Source of the DNA: a virus
Lineage: Duplodnaviria > Heunggongvirae > Uroviricota > Caudoviricetes
Virus record (IMG/VR): IMGVR_UViG_2609459846_000013
Strand: one strand, 5' to 3'
Length of the DNA: 5,496 nucleotides
Both the position numbers and the translations under genes were made by a program. The notes beneath the pieces are model-generated. The model worked only from the letters and a program-made list of their open reading frames with translations, was not told the origin of the DNA and searched no databases. Positions 1 to 4,725 of the stretch are shown piece by piece (position 1 is the first letter of the stretch; each line of letters opens with the position of its first letter).

Positions 1-99
1 AAAAACGGTTGAGGCGCTGATGTGTAACGTCAGTCCGATACAACGGTTAGTCAGCTTCTTGTCGAACTTGAGCTGAAGGATCTTAAAACAGGTTTCCAT
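1..99 (-). CDS. Partial ORF (first 33 codons only; body lies beyond window start) with helix-turn-helix-like N-terminus; candidate transposase (IS21 IstA / Mu-like) or small-terminase/regulator
   Basis: Reverse complement of 1-99 reads ATG (99-97) then METCFKILQLKFDKKLTNRCIGLTLHISASTVF with no stop to the window edge. AGGAG lies 4 nt upstream of the ATG (rc of 101-109). The ...R.IG.TL.IS.STV pattern resembles N-terminal HTH motifs. Too short for the supplied ORF track. Identity is a guess. Confidence 0.3.
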   Translation of the reverse strand, partial: METCFKILQLKFDKKLTNRCIGLTLHISASTVF

Positions 100-203
100 A
101 GTGCTCCTGGATTTTCTCTTTCTGGACATTGACGTCTCCACTGGTTTAAACACGGCAATGGAGACTGTGGTGAAAAGAGTTAATTCCCGGAGTGACTGGC
201 AGG

Positions 204-350
204 ATGCCAATCAATGATCGGAAGCATGCCAAATCGTGATCGATTGTGATGCCAAACTGTGATCGGAGATGAATGCCAAATCATGATCGATTCGAATGCC
301 AAACTGCGATCGATTCAGATGCCATTTTGCAGGGTAAGCGTAGATCGGAT
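204..350. repeat. Tandem array of ~23-bp direct repeats, each containing a GATC (Dam) site; 5 well-conserved units at 204-325 plus degenerate units to ~350
   Basis: Units start at 204, 226, 249, 273, 296 and 319 (partial), all beginning ATGCCAA(A) and containing (T)GATCG; approximate consensus ATGCCAAAYNRTGATCGRNNNNN. A seventh GATCGG lies at 343-348 and CGGATAC occurs twice (346-352, 356-362). Six GATC sites in about 140 bp. Confidence 0.85.
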
Positions 351-867
351 ACAGGCGGATACTGACTTCATTCAGTTTTGGGGTTGCCGTCTGGTTACGT
401 GCCGCACCTTCTTCGCCGTGTCCCACGACCGCACCCCCGGCAGAAACCAGTTGCTTAAATTCATTACTGTGAATGGTTTTAACAGTACAGATTTTACGCA
501 TCACCGACTCATCAGAAAGCTGACGCATAATTTCTCTGTTCAGTTCCGGGATAACCGTATAACCACCATCAGCCGGAACACTGCCGGACAGGTTGCGGGT
601 TTCCCCGGTCAGAATGTAAGAGCGTAGCTCATTTTTGGTGATTTTATCTTCGACGGGAACACCAGGCTGGTTACGTTCTTCATCAGCCACAGACTCGAGG
701 CGGGAAATTTCTGTGTCGAGGGAATCGGCTTTTGCACGCAGTTCATCAAACTGTTTGCCTTCGTCATCGGTTAGACTGCGGTTTTCACTGTCGGCTTTTT
801 CCAGCAGGGATCGCATCTGGTTTTTCAGGGCGGTTTTTTGCTGGCGGAGTTCGATTAATTTCTTCAT
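211..867 (-). CDS. HK97-fold phage major capsid protein, N-terminal portion only (delta-domain coiled coil plus start of capsid core); probably truncated or interrupted
   Basis: ORF-track protein of 218 aa. The N-terminal ~65 aa are coiled-coil-like (MKKLIELRQQKTALKNQMRSLLEKADSENRSLTDDEGKQFDELRAKADSLDTEISRLE), followed by SGSVPADGGYTVIPELNREIMRQLSDESVMRKICTVKTI...AGGAVVGHGEEGAA, which matches the conserved G-G-Y-x-V-P-E...R-x-hydrophobic...V-G-E-G-A-A block of HK97-family capsids as I recall it. Full-length capsids are usually over 300 aa; here recognisable similarity stops by roughly nt 322-376 and the last ~36 codons are translated from the tandem repeats. Start ATG at 867-865 with only a weak RBS. 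Confidence 0.55.
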   Translation of the reverse strand: MKKLIELRQQKTALKNQMRSLLEKADSENRSLTDDEGKQFDELRAKADSLDTEISRLESVADEERNQPGVPVEDKITKNELRSYILTGETRNLSGSVPADGGYTVIPELNREIMRQLSDESVMRKICTVKTIHSNEFKQLVSAGGAVVGHGEEGAARNQTATPKLNEVSIRLYPIYAYPAKWHLNRSQFGIRIDHDLAFISDHSLASQSITIWHASDH

Positions 868-1100
868 GAAGGTTTTCTCGCATTGGTTAAGATTCAGGAC
901 GTGAAACCAACACGGGGGGAGCGCCGCCCGACACTCTCGGCATCTCGCAGATCAACCCGGCATCGCGCAGGGGGTCAGGCGGCATTGTGGCGGCTCACGT
1001 CTGAGTGCCACACGCCAACATATACATAAAAATCAGTATGTAAACATCAGCCAGAATCACCGAACAACCTGGAACAACCACGAACAAATAATTTACAAAA
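868..1100 (-). promoter_or_regulatory. Intergenic control region upstream of the capsid-like gene; contains paired direct repeats that could be operator/activator sites
   Basis: 233-bp non-coding gap between the terminator and the capsid-like start. Direct repeats CGGCATC(T/G)CGCAG at 938-950 and 958-970 (20 bp apart, two helical turns); CGAACAA at 1061-1067 and 1081-1087 with GAACAACC at 1062-1069 and 1072-1079. No convincing sigma70 -35/-10 pair found by eye on the minus strand, so an activator-dependent promoter is possible. Confidence 0.3.
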
Positions 1101-1104
1101 CCTG

Positions 1105-1136
1105 AAAAAAGGCCCGGAAAAAATCCGGGCCTTTAT
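1105..1136 (-). terminator. Rho-independent terminator (bidirectional hairpin) ending the minus-strand operon
   Basis: Perfect 8-bp stem GGCCCGGA (1111-1118) / TCCGGGCC (1124-1131) with a 5-nt loop. On the minus strand the hairpin is followed by TTTTTT (rc of 1105-1110); on the plus strand by TTTAT. Sits 5-10 nt downstream of the stop of the 1141-1389 ORF. Confidence 0.7.
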
Positions 1137-1140
1137 CGCT

Positions 1141-1389
1141 TTATTGTTTCACTGGCTCCCGCATTCTGCGTCTTATTTTCCACAAATATTCGATCATCGC
1201 TTCCACCTGCTCACGGTTGGTTGCGAAAATTTCCCCGGTCAGTGAGCTACGCAGAAAATCATGATGATCCACAAAAAATAACGCATCGGAAGAAAGCAAC
1301 CGACGATATTTTTTTGCTGTCGTGGTTTCCAGATCATCAAAACCATGAAGCTTTTTATGTTGCTGAACTTCTTCAAATGTCACTGGCAT
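1141..1389 (-). CDS. Hypothetical small protein (82 aa), last gene of the ori-proximal operon
   Basis: ATG at 1389-1387 preceded by AAGGGGGAT, overlapping the upstream gene's stop by 10 nt (ATGCCAGTGA). Basic C-terminus (KIRRRMREPVKQ). No family recognised by eye. Confidence 0.55.
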   Translation of the reverse strand: MPVTFEEVQQHKKLHGFDDLETTTAKKYRRLLSSDALFFVDHHDFLRSSLTGEIFATNREQVEAMIEYLWKIRRRMREPVKQ

Positions 1390-1919
1390 GTATCCCCCTT
1401 TGCTGCCCGGCGCTGGCGCTTGTGCTTCTCATTCAGCACCATCAGCCGTGTTTCTGCCTCCTGCTGTTCCTGTGGTGTCACTTCCCCACATGGCTGGCCT
1501 TTCAGGTCGTAACGTGCGCCACCAGCTATCAGGGCGCGGTAATAGCGCGGAGACTGCGCATAGGATGCCAGCGTCGCACGTAATACCCCCGACCCGAATG
1601 CCAGCCCCCTGACGGCGATATCCTGCATCAGGTCGTCGAATATCCCCACCTTAAGCGGCTTCGGTGCTTTATGGCTGAATAAGTCAGGCCACATCTCAGT
1701 GAGGCGGTTAACGCGTCGGCGGTTTTTGCGCTGCCTTTTGGTCATATGCTGCCACGGTGTCGCCCCTGCGGTCTTCTGTGGCTTCTGCTGTGCGTTCTGA
1801 TTGCCGGGTATCACTTTATGCGCCGATGTGGTTTTATCCTGCTCTTGCGCCGCCTGCGTCGTTTTCTGCGGCGTGCCGTAAATGCCTTTCGGCTTCCGGT
1901 TAATGGTCAGCGTTGTCAT
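1380..1919 (-). CDS. FinO/ProQ-domain RNA-binding protein (RNA chaperone-like), 179 aa
   Basis: The C-terminal half (PLKVGIFDDLMQDIAVRGLAFGSGVLRATLASYAQSPRYYRALIAGGARYDLKGQPCGEVTPQEQQEAE) aligns by eye with the E. coli ProQ N-terminal FinO-like domain as I recall it (PLKIGIFQDLV...[35 protein letters not shown]...). The N-terminal ~80 aa are Lys/Gln/Arg-rich and probably disordered, as in F-plasmid FinO. ATG at 1919-1917 with GGGGGAAGG RBS. Confidence 0.8.
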   Translation of the reverse strand: MTTLTINRKPKGIYGTPQKTTQAAQEQDKTTSAHKVIPGNQNAQQKPQKTAGATPWQHMTKRQRKNRRRVNRLTEMWPDLFSHKAPKPLKVGIFDDLMQDIAVRGLAFGSGVLRATLASYAQSPRYYRALIAGGARYDLKGQPCGEVTPQEQQEAETRLMVLNEKHKRQRRAAKGDTCQ

Positions 1920-1955
1920 GCCTTCCCCCGTAATTACTCTGTTCGCTGTTGTGAA

Positions 1956-2381
1956 TTAAAACGGTATGTTATCCCCGTACGGGTCATCGTGCTGGCTTGT
2001 CTGTTGTTTTGCCCTGTTCAGTGCGTCAGTGGCCTGGCCCTGTTGACCTTTTTTGCCGCCCGGTCGCGCCGTTCGCGCACTGATTACGCTGTCTGCAATA
2101 ACCTGCCAGCCCTGCCGCGTTTCCCCGTTCTGGCCTGTCCACTGGCTCACCTGCATGTTACCCGCCACGCTCACCAGTTCGCCTTTGTGGTGTTTTGCCA
2201 GTGCGTCGGCCTGTCTGCCAAACGCCAGGACAGATAACCACATCGTCGCCGTTCCGTCATCTGCCTGGCTGCACGGCAGGGGAACCGCCATACTCGCCAT
2301 CGCCATTTGTGTCCCTTTGCTGGTGGTCTTTAACTGCGGGTCAGCCACCAGCCGCCCGTAAGCCGCTATCTGTGCTGTCAT
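1956..2381 (-). CDS. ssb: Single-stranded DNA-binding protein (SSB), 141 aa
   Basis: OB-fold signature as in E. coli SSB (GRLVADPQLKTT...MWLSVLAFGRQADALAKHHKGELVSVAGNMQVSQWTGQNGETRQGWQVIADSV), a Gly/Gln-rich linker, and the acidic C-terminal tail ...DDPYGDNIPF (compare E. coli ...DFDDDIPF). ATG at 2381-2379 with GGAGAG RBS; ATGA overlap with the upstream ORF. Confidence 0.85.
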   Translation of the reverse strand: MTAQIAAYGRLVADPQLKTTSKGTQMAMASMAVPLPCSQADDGTATMWLSVLAFGRQADALAKHHKGELVSVAGNMQVSQWTGQNGETRQGWQVIADSVISARTARPGGKKGQQGQATDALNRAKQQTSQHDDPYGDNIPF

Positions 2382-2623
2382 GCTGTCTGCTCTCCGGTTT
2401 TAACGTTGATGGTTGTCACCTGTTCCGCTTCGGCAATCTCCCGTTCTGTCAGCGTGGCAAAGTTTGCCGCTGCCGTGGTCATGAATGCGCTTACCAGTTC
2501 GGGATGTGCTTTTGCGTACCCTTCTCCCGCGTTGCGGTCGATGATTTTTATCGCCACCCTCAGCCAGTGTTCTGTCAAATCAAGGGCGTGAGATTGTGGT
2601 TTTTTTGCGTGCTTCGTTGTCAC
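2378..2623 (-). CDS. Hypothetical small protein (81 aa), first gene after the origin
   Basis: Apparent GTG start at 2623-2621 preceded by TGAGGTAAAG; stop overlaps the ssb ATG (ATGA at 2381-2378), indicating translational coupling. No family recognised. Confidence 0.5.
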   Translation of the reverse strand: MTTKHAKKPQSHALDLTEHWLRVAIKIIDRNAGEGYAKAHPELVSAFMTTAAANFATLTEREIAEAEQVTTINVKTGEQTA

Positions 2624-2910
2624 AGGCTTTACCTCACAGCAATAAAATAAAATTTTTGCATTTTAACCCTTCACCTGTTCACCTTTTGATATTTTCCCTT
2701 TTTATTCATAATGTTAAGGGGTGAACAGTTTCACAAAAACTATTCACCAACTGTTCACCACTGTTCACCCTTAAAGCTCAATAAATAATCAAAAAGGTGA
2801 ACAGTGAATAGTTTGGTGAACAGTTCACAAATAACTGTTCACCCTATAATGTACTGATATAAAAGATATTTATAACAGGGTGAACAGTGGTGAACAGTTA
2901 TTCCATAAGT
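2624..2910. other. Probable origin of replication (iterons flanked by AT-rich unwinding tracts) immediately downstream of the primase-helicase gene
   Basis: Non-coding 287 bp between the primase stop (2911) and the next gene. AT-rich tracts at 2641-2667 and 2845-2876 bracket the iterons. Phage P4 ori/crr carry the same TGTTCACC octamer bound by the alpha protein (recalled knowledge). Confidence 0.7.
2668..2896. repeat. Iteron cluster: about 10 copies of the 8-bp motif TGTTCACC / GGTGAACA in both orientations (P4 type-I-iteron-like)
   Basis: TGTTCACC at 2676, 2752, 2762, 2836; GGTGAACA at 2720, 2796, 2815, 2879, 2889; near-copies TATTCACC 2741, CTTCACC 2669, GTTCACA 2824, GTGAATAG 2805. Two adjacent copies at 2879-2896. 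Confidence 0.85.
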
Positions 2911-4725
2911 TTAATTTTTGCTGTCGTCATTTGTGACCGATGCACATGATGGCATCCAGTCTTCTGAATCCTCTGTCAGTGTCACATTTGAACGCAAACC
3001 GTGCTTCGTTTTCCGTTTTATATACTCCCTGCCATATTCCGCCATTGCCCCCGGCATATCTTTACCGAAGCGCGTCAGTGTTACAGGTTTACCGAATCCG
3101 TGTGCCCTCATATATGCCAGATAGGCGTGATAAAGATACCTGCGCGGACTGAACGGAATAATTTCGGCATTACCCACTAACAGACCATCACACATTACCG
3201 ACGACATGAGATAGCCACAGAAGTCCACCAGCGAATCGCCCTCGCGTTTTATCACCAGAGCTTCTTCTGATTTCTGCTGCTCATACAGCAGGCGTTTAGC
3301 TTCGTCCTGGTCAGAAAAACGAGTAAGCAGATGGCGAATCACAACCGCCAGCTCTCCTTCTATTTTTTCTGCCAGCATGGGGTCGCGCTCGTTCTCCGGT
3401 ACAACCTCCGAAAAATTGAATATCACCCGACGACGTGAGATCCCCCCGCTGCGGTCACTGAATGACATGGCGTTATTGTTCACCGCCAGCACGACCGCCT
3501 GAATGCGTGTTGAGTAGGGGGCTTTATGCTTCGGGTCGATTGCCACCTTGTCACCGCCTGTAATAGCCTTAATTCCTGCGCCATCACCAGCGTAGCGGGT
3601 CATATCCGGCATGATAATCAGCGAAAAGCCAACCACTAACGCGCGTTCCCTTGCATCTTCCAGCGCCTTCATGCTTGCCGATACTGTGTTGGCCTTACCC
3701 GCCAGCATGGTGCAAATCTCCGCCATCACGCTTTTACCACTTCCCCCTGGACCTGTTACCTCAATGAATAACTGCCAGTCGTACCGGTTCGCCAGCACCA
3801 TGAATAATGCAGCCAGCACGCGATCCGTCTTGCGGTCATTCTCTGCCACCGAGCAGCGTAACCACTTCCAGAAATTCGGCGCATGTGTTGCCAGCGTTTC
3901 CCCCTCTGCTGGTGGGCTGAAAGGTAATTCACTGGCAATTAACAACCAGTCGTTTTTGTTATGCTCCCGAAAATTACCTGTTCTGGTATCAAATACCCCG
4001 TTACTGAATCCAATCAGGTTACGGGCTGTATTCCCCATTACAGGCAAACTTAACTTCATGGTATCGACCGCCGATTTAATGGCGTTCTGCGAATAGCTGA
4101 TCTCCGCATCAATGAAAATCTGCGCCATAGCACGCTGTAACTCTTTATCCTGAATCGGCTCCCATACAACGCCGTTGTAATGGTGAACAGTGTCAGAGTC
4201 GGCATGAATCGCCAGTTCACCGCCATAATGTGCCAGGAGAACTTCGCCGCGCTGGCTTGCTCCCATCTGGTTAAGCGCCAGTGGTGCGGCGCTGTCTTCT
4301 GTTTTTTTCTTAACAGGAAGCTGAATCACCAGACCATCAGAAAGATTCTGGCGCTCACGGGCCAGATATTCGCGCCAGTTCTGCACCTCCTGGCCGTGCA
4401 TACCCTCAGGATAAAAATTTGCATCCTGTACGCCTGCCGCCGCCAGCTTCTGACCAATCGCCTTTATCATTACTGGCGCAAGATATCCGGCCCTGAATAT
4501 GCGCACGGATTTTCTGCCTTCCGGCACAATTTGCAGCTTATCCAGTTCGGATAACTGCTGCTCCCCAAGCCACACAGGAGGCTCATTATCTCCGGCCATA
4601 CGCGCGTCATGTTCCTGCCATTGTTTTGCGTGTGACCAGGCATCACTACCCGCAAAAATAATGACTTCTGTTTCTTTGTGTTTTATGCCGCGTGACTGCT
4701 GTTTTACGTTCGGTGCCAGTTTCAT
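2911..4725 (-). CDS. Replication initiator primase-helicase, P4-alpha / D5 family (phage- or plasmid-associated primase C-terminal helicase domain), 604 aa
   Basis: Longest ORF in the window. Walker A GPGGSGKS at residues 325-332, followed by a hydrophobic stretch with an acidic residue (LVVGFSLIIMPDM) and an Asn-rich motif (AVNNN) typical of SF3/D5-type helicases. A D5_N-like region lies upstream (HYGGELAIHADSDTVHHYNGVVWEP). The C-terminal ~120 aa are basic and aromatic-rich and may bind the origin. ATG at 4725-4723 with GGGG RBS; ATGA overlap with the upstream ORF. Primase catalytic motifs were not identified by eye. Confidence 0.9.
   Translation of the reverse strand: MKLAPNVKQQSRGIKHKETEVIIFAGSDAWSHAKQWQEHDARMAGDNEPPVWLGEQQLSELDKLQIVPEGRKSVRIFRAGYLAPVMIKAIGQKLAAAGVQDANFYPEGMHGQEVQNWREYLARERQNLSDGLVIQLPVKKKTEDSAAPLALNQMGASQRGEVLLAHYGGELAIHADSDTVHHYNGVVWEPIQDKELQRAMAQIFIDAEISYSQNAIKSAVDTMKLSLPVMGNTARNLIGFSNGVFDTRTGNFREHNKNDWLLIASELPFSPPAEGETLATHAPNFWKWLRCSVAENDRKTDRVLAALFMVLANRYDWQLFIEVTGPGGSGKSVMAEICTMLAGKANTVSASMKALEDARERALVVGFSLIIMPDMTRYAGDGAGIKAITGGDKVAIDPKHKAPYSTRIQAVVLAVNNNAMSFSDRSGGISRRRVIFNFSEVVPENERDPMLAEKIEGELAVVIRHLLTRFSDQDEAKRLLYEQQKSEEALVIKREGDSLVDFCGYLMSSVMCDGLLVGNAEIIPFSPRRYLYHAYLAYMRAHGFGKPVTLTRFGKDMPGAMAEYGREYIKRKTKHGLRSNVTLTEDSEDWMPSCASVTNDDSKN

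Follow-up and report, generated by a model that had tools for sequence, protein, structure and literature searches.

An intact bacterial-type SSB gene in the replication module of an Escherichia coli island with the gene set of a capsid-forming PICI

[quoted passage not shown] As far as profiles and a structural model can tell, its product is almost certainly a functional SSB, and it probably supports the replication of the satellite island that carries it, coating the forks and recruiting host replisome proteins via the IPF tip at its C-terminus. An earlier interpretation made from the letters of the DNA (below, the sequence-only reading) had noticed OB-fold motifs, a conserved acidic tip and a short linker in an element-encoded SSB close to iterons, and had suggested that this SSB may compete with or complement host SSB during origin firing and could be a trigger or decoy for host defences. 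The features noticed in the sequence are confirmed, while the trigger or decoy is unsupported. The gene and the parts of its product are as follows.

1956..2381, minus strand: ssb coding sequence, 141 aa plus a stop codon at 1956-1958, ATG start
2073..2381, minus strand: predicted OB-fold ssDNA-binding core, residues 1-103 (AlphaFold2 model and Foldseek)
1989..2072, minus strand: disordered linker, residues 104-131, 28 aa (pLDDT below 50 and composition)
1959..1988, minus strand: C-terminal tip DDPYGDNIPF, residues 132-141 (translation and family consensus)

The translation of the minus-strand ORF ends in ...QHDDPYGDNIPF; listed again for the 141-aa product starting from the ATG, its last residues are ...TSQHDDPYGDNIPF. 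The product matches the Pfam SSB family PF00436 (E = 4e-16; 59.4 bits, the gathering cut-off being 26), PHROG 44, "single strand DNA binding protein" (E = 1.5e-39), and TIGR00621 (62.7 bits, above the curated cut-off of 53.95), and a sequence search of solved structures matched it to 26 distinct SSB sequences. The sequence-only reading would have been abandoned if a profile search had shown no SSB or OB-fold similarity, or if the gene were frameshifted in homologous elements. The profile searches are positive, and 84 of the 85 homologous loci carry the ORF intact, at a median dN/dS of 0.08.

In the AlphaFold2 model, which was computed for the monomer from a 15-sequence family alignment, residues 1-103 form a confident OB barrel (block-mean pLDDT 76-92), with strands at residues 3-11, 16-19, 25-36, 44-54, 69-82 and 88-101; the helix at residues 55-62 corresponds to the canonical SSB helix between strands 3 and 4. 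When this model was compared with the PDB by Foldseek, the 50 matches listed were bacterial SSBs throughout, with probability 1.0 and a target-relative TM of approximately 0.8. Staphylococcus aureus SsbA and SsbB were the best structural matches, and the others included Bacillus subtilis SsbA, SSBs of Mycobacterium and Klebsiella, and the E. coli structure 1EQQ.

The whole C-terminal tail (residues 104-141) has pLDDT below 50. Its linker is basic, with five K/R residues against one D, and it is indeed short, as had been noticed from the sequence: the 28 residues (104-131) are K/R/Q-rich, whereas the linker of E. coli SSB is G/Q/P-rich and comprises 56 residues. In relatives, indels fall in the linker (deletions of 13 and 7 aa, and an insertion of 8 aa), which is expected of an intrinsically disordered tether. 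The tip follows the consensus DDPYGDxIPF across 120 close homologues, with IPF and the D at position -5 conserved and position -4, occupied by N in the window, being the sole variable one (N, G, E, D or S). The OB core, the linker and the tip are all approximately 84-88% conserved in the close homologues, so that no contrast between the parts is seen at that divergence; since domain conservation in close homologues is uninformative, we judged conservation by the indel pattern and dN/dS.

An exhaustive HMMER search yielded 7449 clusters (50% identity) with matches at E <= 0.001. Of the 150 top-scoring clusters, 111 were full-length, the median length was 143 aa, and 42 of the 111 full-length distant relatives ended in [ILVM][PS]F. 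Thus, a short-tailed SSB with a host-type tip is the norm for the clade and no peculiarity of the 1956-2381 gene.

The satellite SSB, as modelled, has the OB fold in common with E. coli SSB (P0AGE0; PDB 1EQQ, 1EYG), the OB cores being just 26% identical. Three of the four aromatic residues that stack with ssDNA are kept, as W54, F60 and W88 of E. coli SSB correspond to W48, F54 and W81, all of them invariant in the family, whereas W40 is replaced by Q38. At the tetramer interface, H55 is replaced by L49, and the satellite protein is basic (pI 8.9, compared with 5.4 for E. coli SSB). With W40 and H55 replaced and a basic pI, the satellite protein may oligomerise differently from the host SSB and may also bind DNA in another mode; mixed tetramers with E. 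coli SSB seem unlikely, because of the 26% identity and the missing H55. In both proteins the tail is disordered, its last residues are D-x-I-P-F, and position -7 is aromatic (F in E. coli SSB, Y in the satellite SSB). The satellite tip, GDNIPF, is less acidic than DDDIPF of E. coli SSB (DFDDDIPF), and this lower acidity could make its binding to partners weaker or narrower.

The short-tailed SSBs of Firmicutes temperate phages (such as Staphylococcus phage PVL and Streptococcus phage 5093) are similar in size (approximately 130-150 aa), share the PF00436 fold and align with the satellite SSB over the full length, but the identity is only 28-30% and the hosts differ. Among the phage records of INPHARED none has at least 60% identity to the satellite SSB, and the best are these Firmicute phage SSBs at about 28-30%; hence, within INPHARED, the lineage appears to be specific to satellites. 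The SSBs of the T7 gp2.5 and T4 gp32 types, which trigger Retron-Eco8, DARNA and AbpAB, use an OB fold for ssDNA binding and carry an acidic tail at the C-terminus, features common to the satellite SSB type, but they belong to another family and have another architecture than the PF00436-type satellite SSB.

The neighbourhood of ssb in the window comprises the following features, given in the direction of transcription of the minus strand.

2911..4725, minus strand: D5/P4-type primase-helicase, 604 aa, presumed initiator (Pfam D5_N, DUF5906, Pox_D5)
2675..2897, no strand assigned: iteron field and putative satellite origin with ten GGTGAACAG repeats (motif count and GC content)
2378..2623, minus strand: 81-aa ORF located between the iterons and ssb (phrog_1231, E = 2e-49)
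1380..1919, minus strand: ProQ/FinO-domain gene, directly downstream of ssb (PF04352, E = 4.5e-24)
1141..1389, minus strand: 82-aa ORF, final gene of the operon, annotated as hypothetical (phrog_1957, E = 4e-36)
1100..1134, minus strand: intrinsic terminator, an 11-bp GC-rich hairpin with a U6 run (RNA fold)
325..867, minus strand: HK97-type major capsid gene, 5' fragment cut by an insertion sequence (IS) (Pfam Phage_capsid, phrog_10)
1..324, no strand assigned: end of an IS21-family element inserted in the major capsid gene (alignment to uninterrupted islands)

The TGA of the 81-aa ORF overlaps the ATG of ssb (ATGA), and a Shine-Dalgarno sequence for ssb, GGAGAG, lies within the 3' end of this ORF, 8 nt upstream of the ATG. 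At the other end, the terminator at about 1100-1134 folds with -25.3 kcal/mol (z = -4.96) and closes the operon running from the primase through ssb and proQ. The start-stop overlap and the presence of a terminator after the 82-aa ORF indicate that the 81-aa ORF, ssb, the proQ-like gene and the 82-aa ORF form one operon. A consensus scan of positions 850-3000 for promoters and terminators gave counts at the shuffle level and missed the terminator that folding showed; in the same region it found no sigma-70 promoter-like site on the minus strand for the operon starting with the 81-aa ORF and ssb.

The primase (2911..4725) matches phrog_864, DNA primase, with E = 5e-193, and scores 96 bits against TIGR01613, below the cut-off of 108.7. 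For the 81-aa ORF (2378..2623), the profile search gave no Pfam match, and its AlphaFold2 model is a helical hairpin of moderate confidence (pLDDT 66). In related islands, the ProQ/FinO gene is replaced by PerC/pchE or other genes.

The GGTGAACAG copies at 2675-2897, nine exact and one with a single mismatch, occur in both orientations. In the whole window there are 15 matches, compared with 1.2 expected, and this number was reached in 0 of 200 shuffles. GC content drops to 33% across the field, which is situated just 3' of the primase gene, with ssb approximately 290 nt downstream of it; PICI (phage-inducible chromosomal island) origins have been mapped just 3' of the primase gene (PMC10111431). 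The sequence-only reading placed the iterons adjacent to ssb: ten copies are indeed found at 2675-2897, but the 81-aa ORF (2378-2623) stands between them and ssb. The sole match of an Rfam scan (E <= 0.1), a plant miRNA family within the iteron field, was rejected as noise, as it scored 32 bits where the gathering score is 150.

The window comes from the E. coli chromosome. Its best match, strain E203449, has 100% coverage and 99.8% identity, and in 20 genomes the match extends over at least 80% of the window. In two annotated copies (L001 and L002; 99.7-99.8% nucleotide identity to the window) the island is approximately 14-15 kb long. It starts with a tyrosine integrase, an HTH regulator, an Icd-like gene, small ORFs, DUF4222, the D5/P4-type primase and the iterons, continues with the 81-aa ORF, ssb, the ProQ/FinO gene, the 82-aa ORF and the HK97-type capsid gene, and then comprises a prohead protease, a portal, a head-tail connector, HNH, TerS (P27) and TerL. 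Between the flanking host genes of the island, neither copy has annotated genes for tail or lysis functions. This gene set is that of the published list of components of the capsid-forming PICI (cf-PICI) core (PMC10085698). Since the full set, lacking tail and lysis genes, matches that list, the window can be assigned, on gene content, to a cf-PICI of E. coli.

The element, which the sequence-only reading had left unnamed, would hence be a cf-PICI satellite, neither a plasmid nor a phage. A plasmid origin was rejected, as the PLSDB matches prove to be IS21 copies, parts of modules or chromosomal fragments filed in error; in one such "plasmid" match, CP061267.1, phoPQ and roxA flank the island. 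A prophage origin was rejected as well, given the lack of annotated tail and lysis genes and an element size of only about 14-15 kb.

The same layout is seen in the E. coli O157 Sakai element annotated as "prophage Sp7; untypable", which occupies the phoQ/roxA site and carries its ssb (ECs_1587) beside pchE, in the same slot as in the window's island. The prototype cf-PICI is EcCIEDL933, for which HK106 is the helper in the published system. We infer that Sp7 is its Sakai counterpart, as the two have the gene layout and the O157:H7 background in common.

Uninterrupted islands align to the window only from position 325, and positions 1-337 match IS21-family copies carried by plasmids at 99.7% identity. 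The capsid gene is a pseudogene in the annotated island L001, with istA/istB adjoining, and is intact in L002. As the IS21-family element (istA/istB) splits the capsid gene, the island copy in the window is probably defective for helper-induced packaging, and, with the capsid gene carrying the insertion, ssb in this particular copy may no longer serve transfer.

If the island is defective, ssb could be just a decaying or functionless passenger in it. Two observations agree with this possibility, namely the disruption of the capsid gene by the IS21-family element in the window's own genome, and a truncated 115-aa allele without the tip in one of the 85 loci. On the other hand, the remaining 84 loci retain the intact ORF, there are 57 distinct nucleotide alleles, and the dN/dS ratio is low, with the median of 0.08 and the maximum of 0.26 (Nei-Gojobori, 1431 pairs with dS > 0.1). 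Thus, ssb is under purifying selection. The comparison with Sakai Sp7 shows the same: the genes have approximately 80% nucleotide identity over the 77% of the gene that aligns, with dS = 1.03 and dN = 0.17, and both the tip and the OB core are conserved although synonymous sites are near saturation. We therefore consider a passenger role barely credible, and for the ssb family as a whole the low dN/dS effectively refutes it.

Of 5426 complete E. coli genomes, 1372 carry genes related to ssb, which PGAP labels as SSB; 1621 of their 1622 places are chromosomal. Relatives are also encoded by 374 IMG/VR contigs, many of them 9-15 kb long. A scan of species-representative genomes, with back-translated patterns that are narrow, yielded one locus, in E. 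albertii; by protein name, relatives are found in Salmonella, Citrobacter, Shigella and E. albertii.

In these elements ssb is kept while the genes around it vary. The replicase is represented by three primase variants or by an AAA/RepA-type helicase; the late module may be of the cf-PICI type or, as in Nissle, comprise a lambda-like capsid, a decoration protein and TerS; and the gene downstream of ssb may be ProQ, PerC or another one. Since ssb persists through swaps of both the replicase and the late module, the pattern fits a generic fork protein and not a partner of one particular replicase. This SSB lineage, present in roughly one in four complete E. coli genomes, outlasts such swaps and is among the most stable genes of the enterobacterial PICI/cf-PICI replication module.

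As ssb sits in the replication module beside the putative iteron origin, the most straightforward interpretation, supported by the gene arrangement, is that its product acts at the replication forks of the element itself. Primase, SSB and DUF5906 have been listed as PICI replication genes colocalising with mapped origins (PMC10111431). The sequence of events could be the following. A helper phage would induce the island, as suggested by the literature on the cf-PICI family, and the D5/P4-type primase-helicase would open the iteron origin at 2675-2897. The operon of the 81-aa ORF, ssb, the proQ-like gene and the 82-aa ORF, with its observed gene order and terminator, would then be expressed and supply the SSB. 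The modelled OB core (residues 1-103) would coat ssDNA at the satellite forks. Host proteins that read the tip of E. coli SSB include the Pol III chi subunit, PriA, RecQ and ExoI, and, by analogy with the biology of E. coli SSB, the D-x-I-P-F tip on its short linker would dock onto such readers. The satellite would thus amplify fast, independently of the limited pool of host SSB, on which the helper also draws.

The last step can also be seen from the side of the helper. The satellite SSB might compete for ssDNA or for the host partners of the tip, biasing resources towards the satellite. PICIs are known to interfere with helper phages, and the host-type tip could titrate host partners; lambda replication relies on host SSB, and the lambdoid helpers HK106 and HK022 are expected to do so too. 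However, the sequence contains nothing specific to interference, and the SSB is retained across both cf-PICI and lambda-capsid PICI late modules, presumably with different helpers. Such interference would, moreover, be hard to tell from the plain role in replication. We consider it unlikely as the function of this SSB, and prefer the replication of the satellite's own DNA.

A plasmid example shows how an SSB supplied by a mobile element may work. SsbF of the F plasmid and the satellite SSB are both mobile-element paralogues of the host SSB; SsbF is a close relative of E. coli SSB, and the satellite SSB, by contrast, represents a distant lineage. SsbF colocalises with the host Ssb at replication forks and partially complements ssb mutants, and its deletion does not lead to the loss of transfer efficiency (PMC9849209). 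Its gene is located in the plasmid leading region, alongside psiB and promoters of the single-strand type, and ssDNA entry leads to its expression (PMC9849209). The setting of the satellite gene differs, since it belongs to the satellite replication operon and is almost always chromosomal (1621 of 1622 places), and its neighbours are satellite genes, not psiB or ssDNA promoters. By analogy, SsbF may nevertheless be taken as a functional precedent for an element-supplied SSB.

A literature search found no experiment on any PICI SSB, and SSB is not listed among the core genes in two cf-PICI papers, including PMC10085698. This absence from the core lists, and the unimpaired transfer after deletion of SsbF, suggest that the satellite ssb may be of use to the island without being essential.

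As for host immunity, the satellite SSB might be sensed by abortive-infection systems and hence act as a trigger, or might be a decoy that shields ssDNA or soaks up the sensor. Defences sensing SSBs do exist, in particular Retron-Eco8, DARNA and Hachiman, and AbpAB and Hna are also SSB-sensing as they are cited in the papers on these three systems. By sequence, with 26% identity to the host SSB, the satellite protein could be perceived as foreign. According to the DARNA preprint, a host-type SSB sequesters ssDNA and blocks activation, and hence an extra host-type SSB could dampen ssDNA-sensing immunity.

The documented triggers all are gp2.5, gp32, T5-type or RecA-like phage proteins. The fold and profiles of the satellite SSB are instead of the PF00436 type, with no sign of the gp2.5, gp32 or T5 D11-type trigger architecture, and the E. 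coli PF00436 SSB does not activate Retron-Eco8 or DARNA. PADLOC, applied to ssb and its seven neighbours, gave zero matches to defence or anti-defence genes. Satellites usually carry defence and counter-defence cargo in variable accessory slots, whereas ssb is fixed in the replication module, outside such slots. Finally, if its SSB triggered common host systems, an element that resides in one out of four E. coli genomes should be counter-selected. Because the PF00436 SSB does not activate Retron-Eco8 or DARNA and the PADLOC result is empty, the suggestion of a trigger or decoy, made by the sequence-only reading, is unsupported, and we regard it as highly improbable.

A related possibility, which we consider very unlikely, is that the satellite SSB is overproduced once the island is induced and serves either in counter-defence, hiding ssDNA from abortive-infection systems that sense ssDNA or SSBs, or in the capture of resources for the satellite origin. 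The counter-defence variant is modelled on the in vitro behaviour of host SSB with DARNA, and the basic short linker and the variable residue at position -4 of the tip could be relevant to it. In the resource-capture variant, host proteins binding the tip could be preferentially channelled to the satellite origin. If true, either would benefit the satellite, and perhaps its helper too. At stake in these alternatives and in the replication role is whether a satellite can out-replicate its helper only with an SSB of its own, and whether host-type SSBs of mobile elements modulate ssDNA-sensing immunity.

The satellite ssb is already known and annotated as an SSB gene (in RefSeq, as Sakai ECs_1587, and in PMC10111431), and its architecture is ordinary for the clade. 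Our result thus bears out a routine annotation, and the satellite family to which it assigns the window is well described. RefSeq entry WP_000126639.1 is the SSB annotation under the island copies that are 99.7-99.8% identical to the window. In PICIs and cf-PICIs with annotated ssb genes (ECs_1587, WP_000126639.1), the gene occupies the same slot as here, in the order primase, small ORF, ssb, ProQ or PerC, capsid. The ECs_1587-type SSBs also share the tip family with the product of the window's gene, from which they show no difference in kind.

The SSB encoded by the satellite is a basic protein, with a pI of 8.9, whereas that of E. coli SSB is 5.4. The linker of the satellite protein (window 1989-2072, minus strand) contains five K/R residues and one D, unlike the G/Q/P-rich linker of the host SSB, and includes a conserved GQATDALNRAKQQ segment, predicted at low confidence as a helix (residues 116-127) in the AF2 model. 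Among the 85 homologous loci we observed a single disrupted ssb copy, namely, a truncated 115-aa allele in the locus L016 (IMGVR_UViG_2541047882_000003), in which the last part of the linker is missing together with the IPF tip.

The ssb gene is flanked on both sides by genes of the same strand.

2378-2623, minus strand: 81-aa ORF (phrog_1231), its stop codon overlapping the ssb start (ATGA)
1380-1919, minus strand: ProQ/FinO-domain protein gene (PF04352, E=4.5e-24), immediately following ssb within its operon

The 81-aa ORF, for which no match was found in Pfam and whose AF2 model is a helical hairpin only (pLDDT 66), was detected beside ssb in 60 of the 85 loci, and its homologues, when the source provides a name, are labelled Escherichia, Shigella or Citrobacter. 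In related islands, other genes occupy the slot of the ProQ-like gene, among them one for a PerC-family regulator (in Sakai Sp7, pchE). The presence of an RNA chaperone gene in the replication operon of a satellite may be of interest in its own right. The length of this gene is 540 nt in the window versus 531 nt in the best-matching genome (L001, 16380-16910), the difference being a 9-nt in-frame indel; hence, none of the retrieved records is identical to the window.

Near-identical islands occupy two chromosomal sites, each with a different integrase protein: in L001, the window's own genome, the island is situated inside yifB, whereas in the near-identical uninterrupted island L002 and in Sakai Sp7 (L003) it is located between phoQ and roxA. 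Some "plasmid" records of PLSDB containing the island are in fact chromosomal DNA: in CP061267.1 (locus L086) the island is flanked by phoPQ and roxA, and the record NZ_CP141089.1 (hit H20) is 4.9 Mb in size. Thus, the plasmid counts for ssb are inflated.

The capsid gene and the region preceding it have the following features.

1-324, and L001 12792-15099: IS21-family element (istA/istB, ISSso4-like) inserted in the satellite HK97-type major capsid gene, with its end in the window
868-1100: non-coding stretch of about 230-270 nt that separates the start of the capsid gene (867) from the terminator of the operon (about 1100-1134)

The N-terminal capsid fragment is a 218-aa ORF at 211-867 that runs on into the end of the IS, and the alignment of uninterrupted islands begins at position 325; the satellite copy in the window is probably unable to build capsids. 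No Rfam family matched the non-coding stretch, in which the late promoter, a site for packaging or a regulatory region could lie.

The iteron motif GGTGAACAG also occurs far from the origin field, as an additional inverted pair.

4182-4190, plus strand, and 4213-4221, minus strand: GGTGAACAG pair within the primase coding region

One copy in this pair is exact and the other has one mismatch; the pair could be a secondary binding site, an autoregulatory site, or a chance occurrence.
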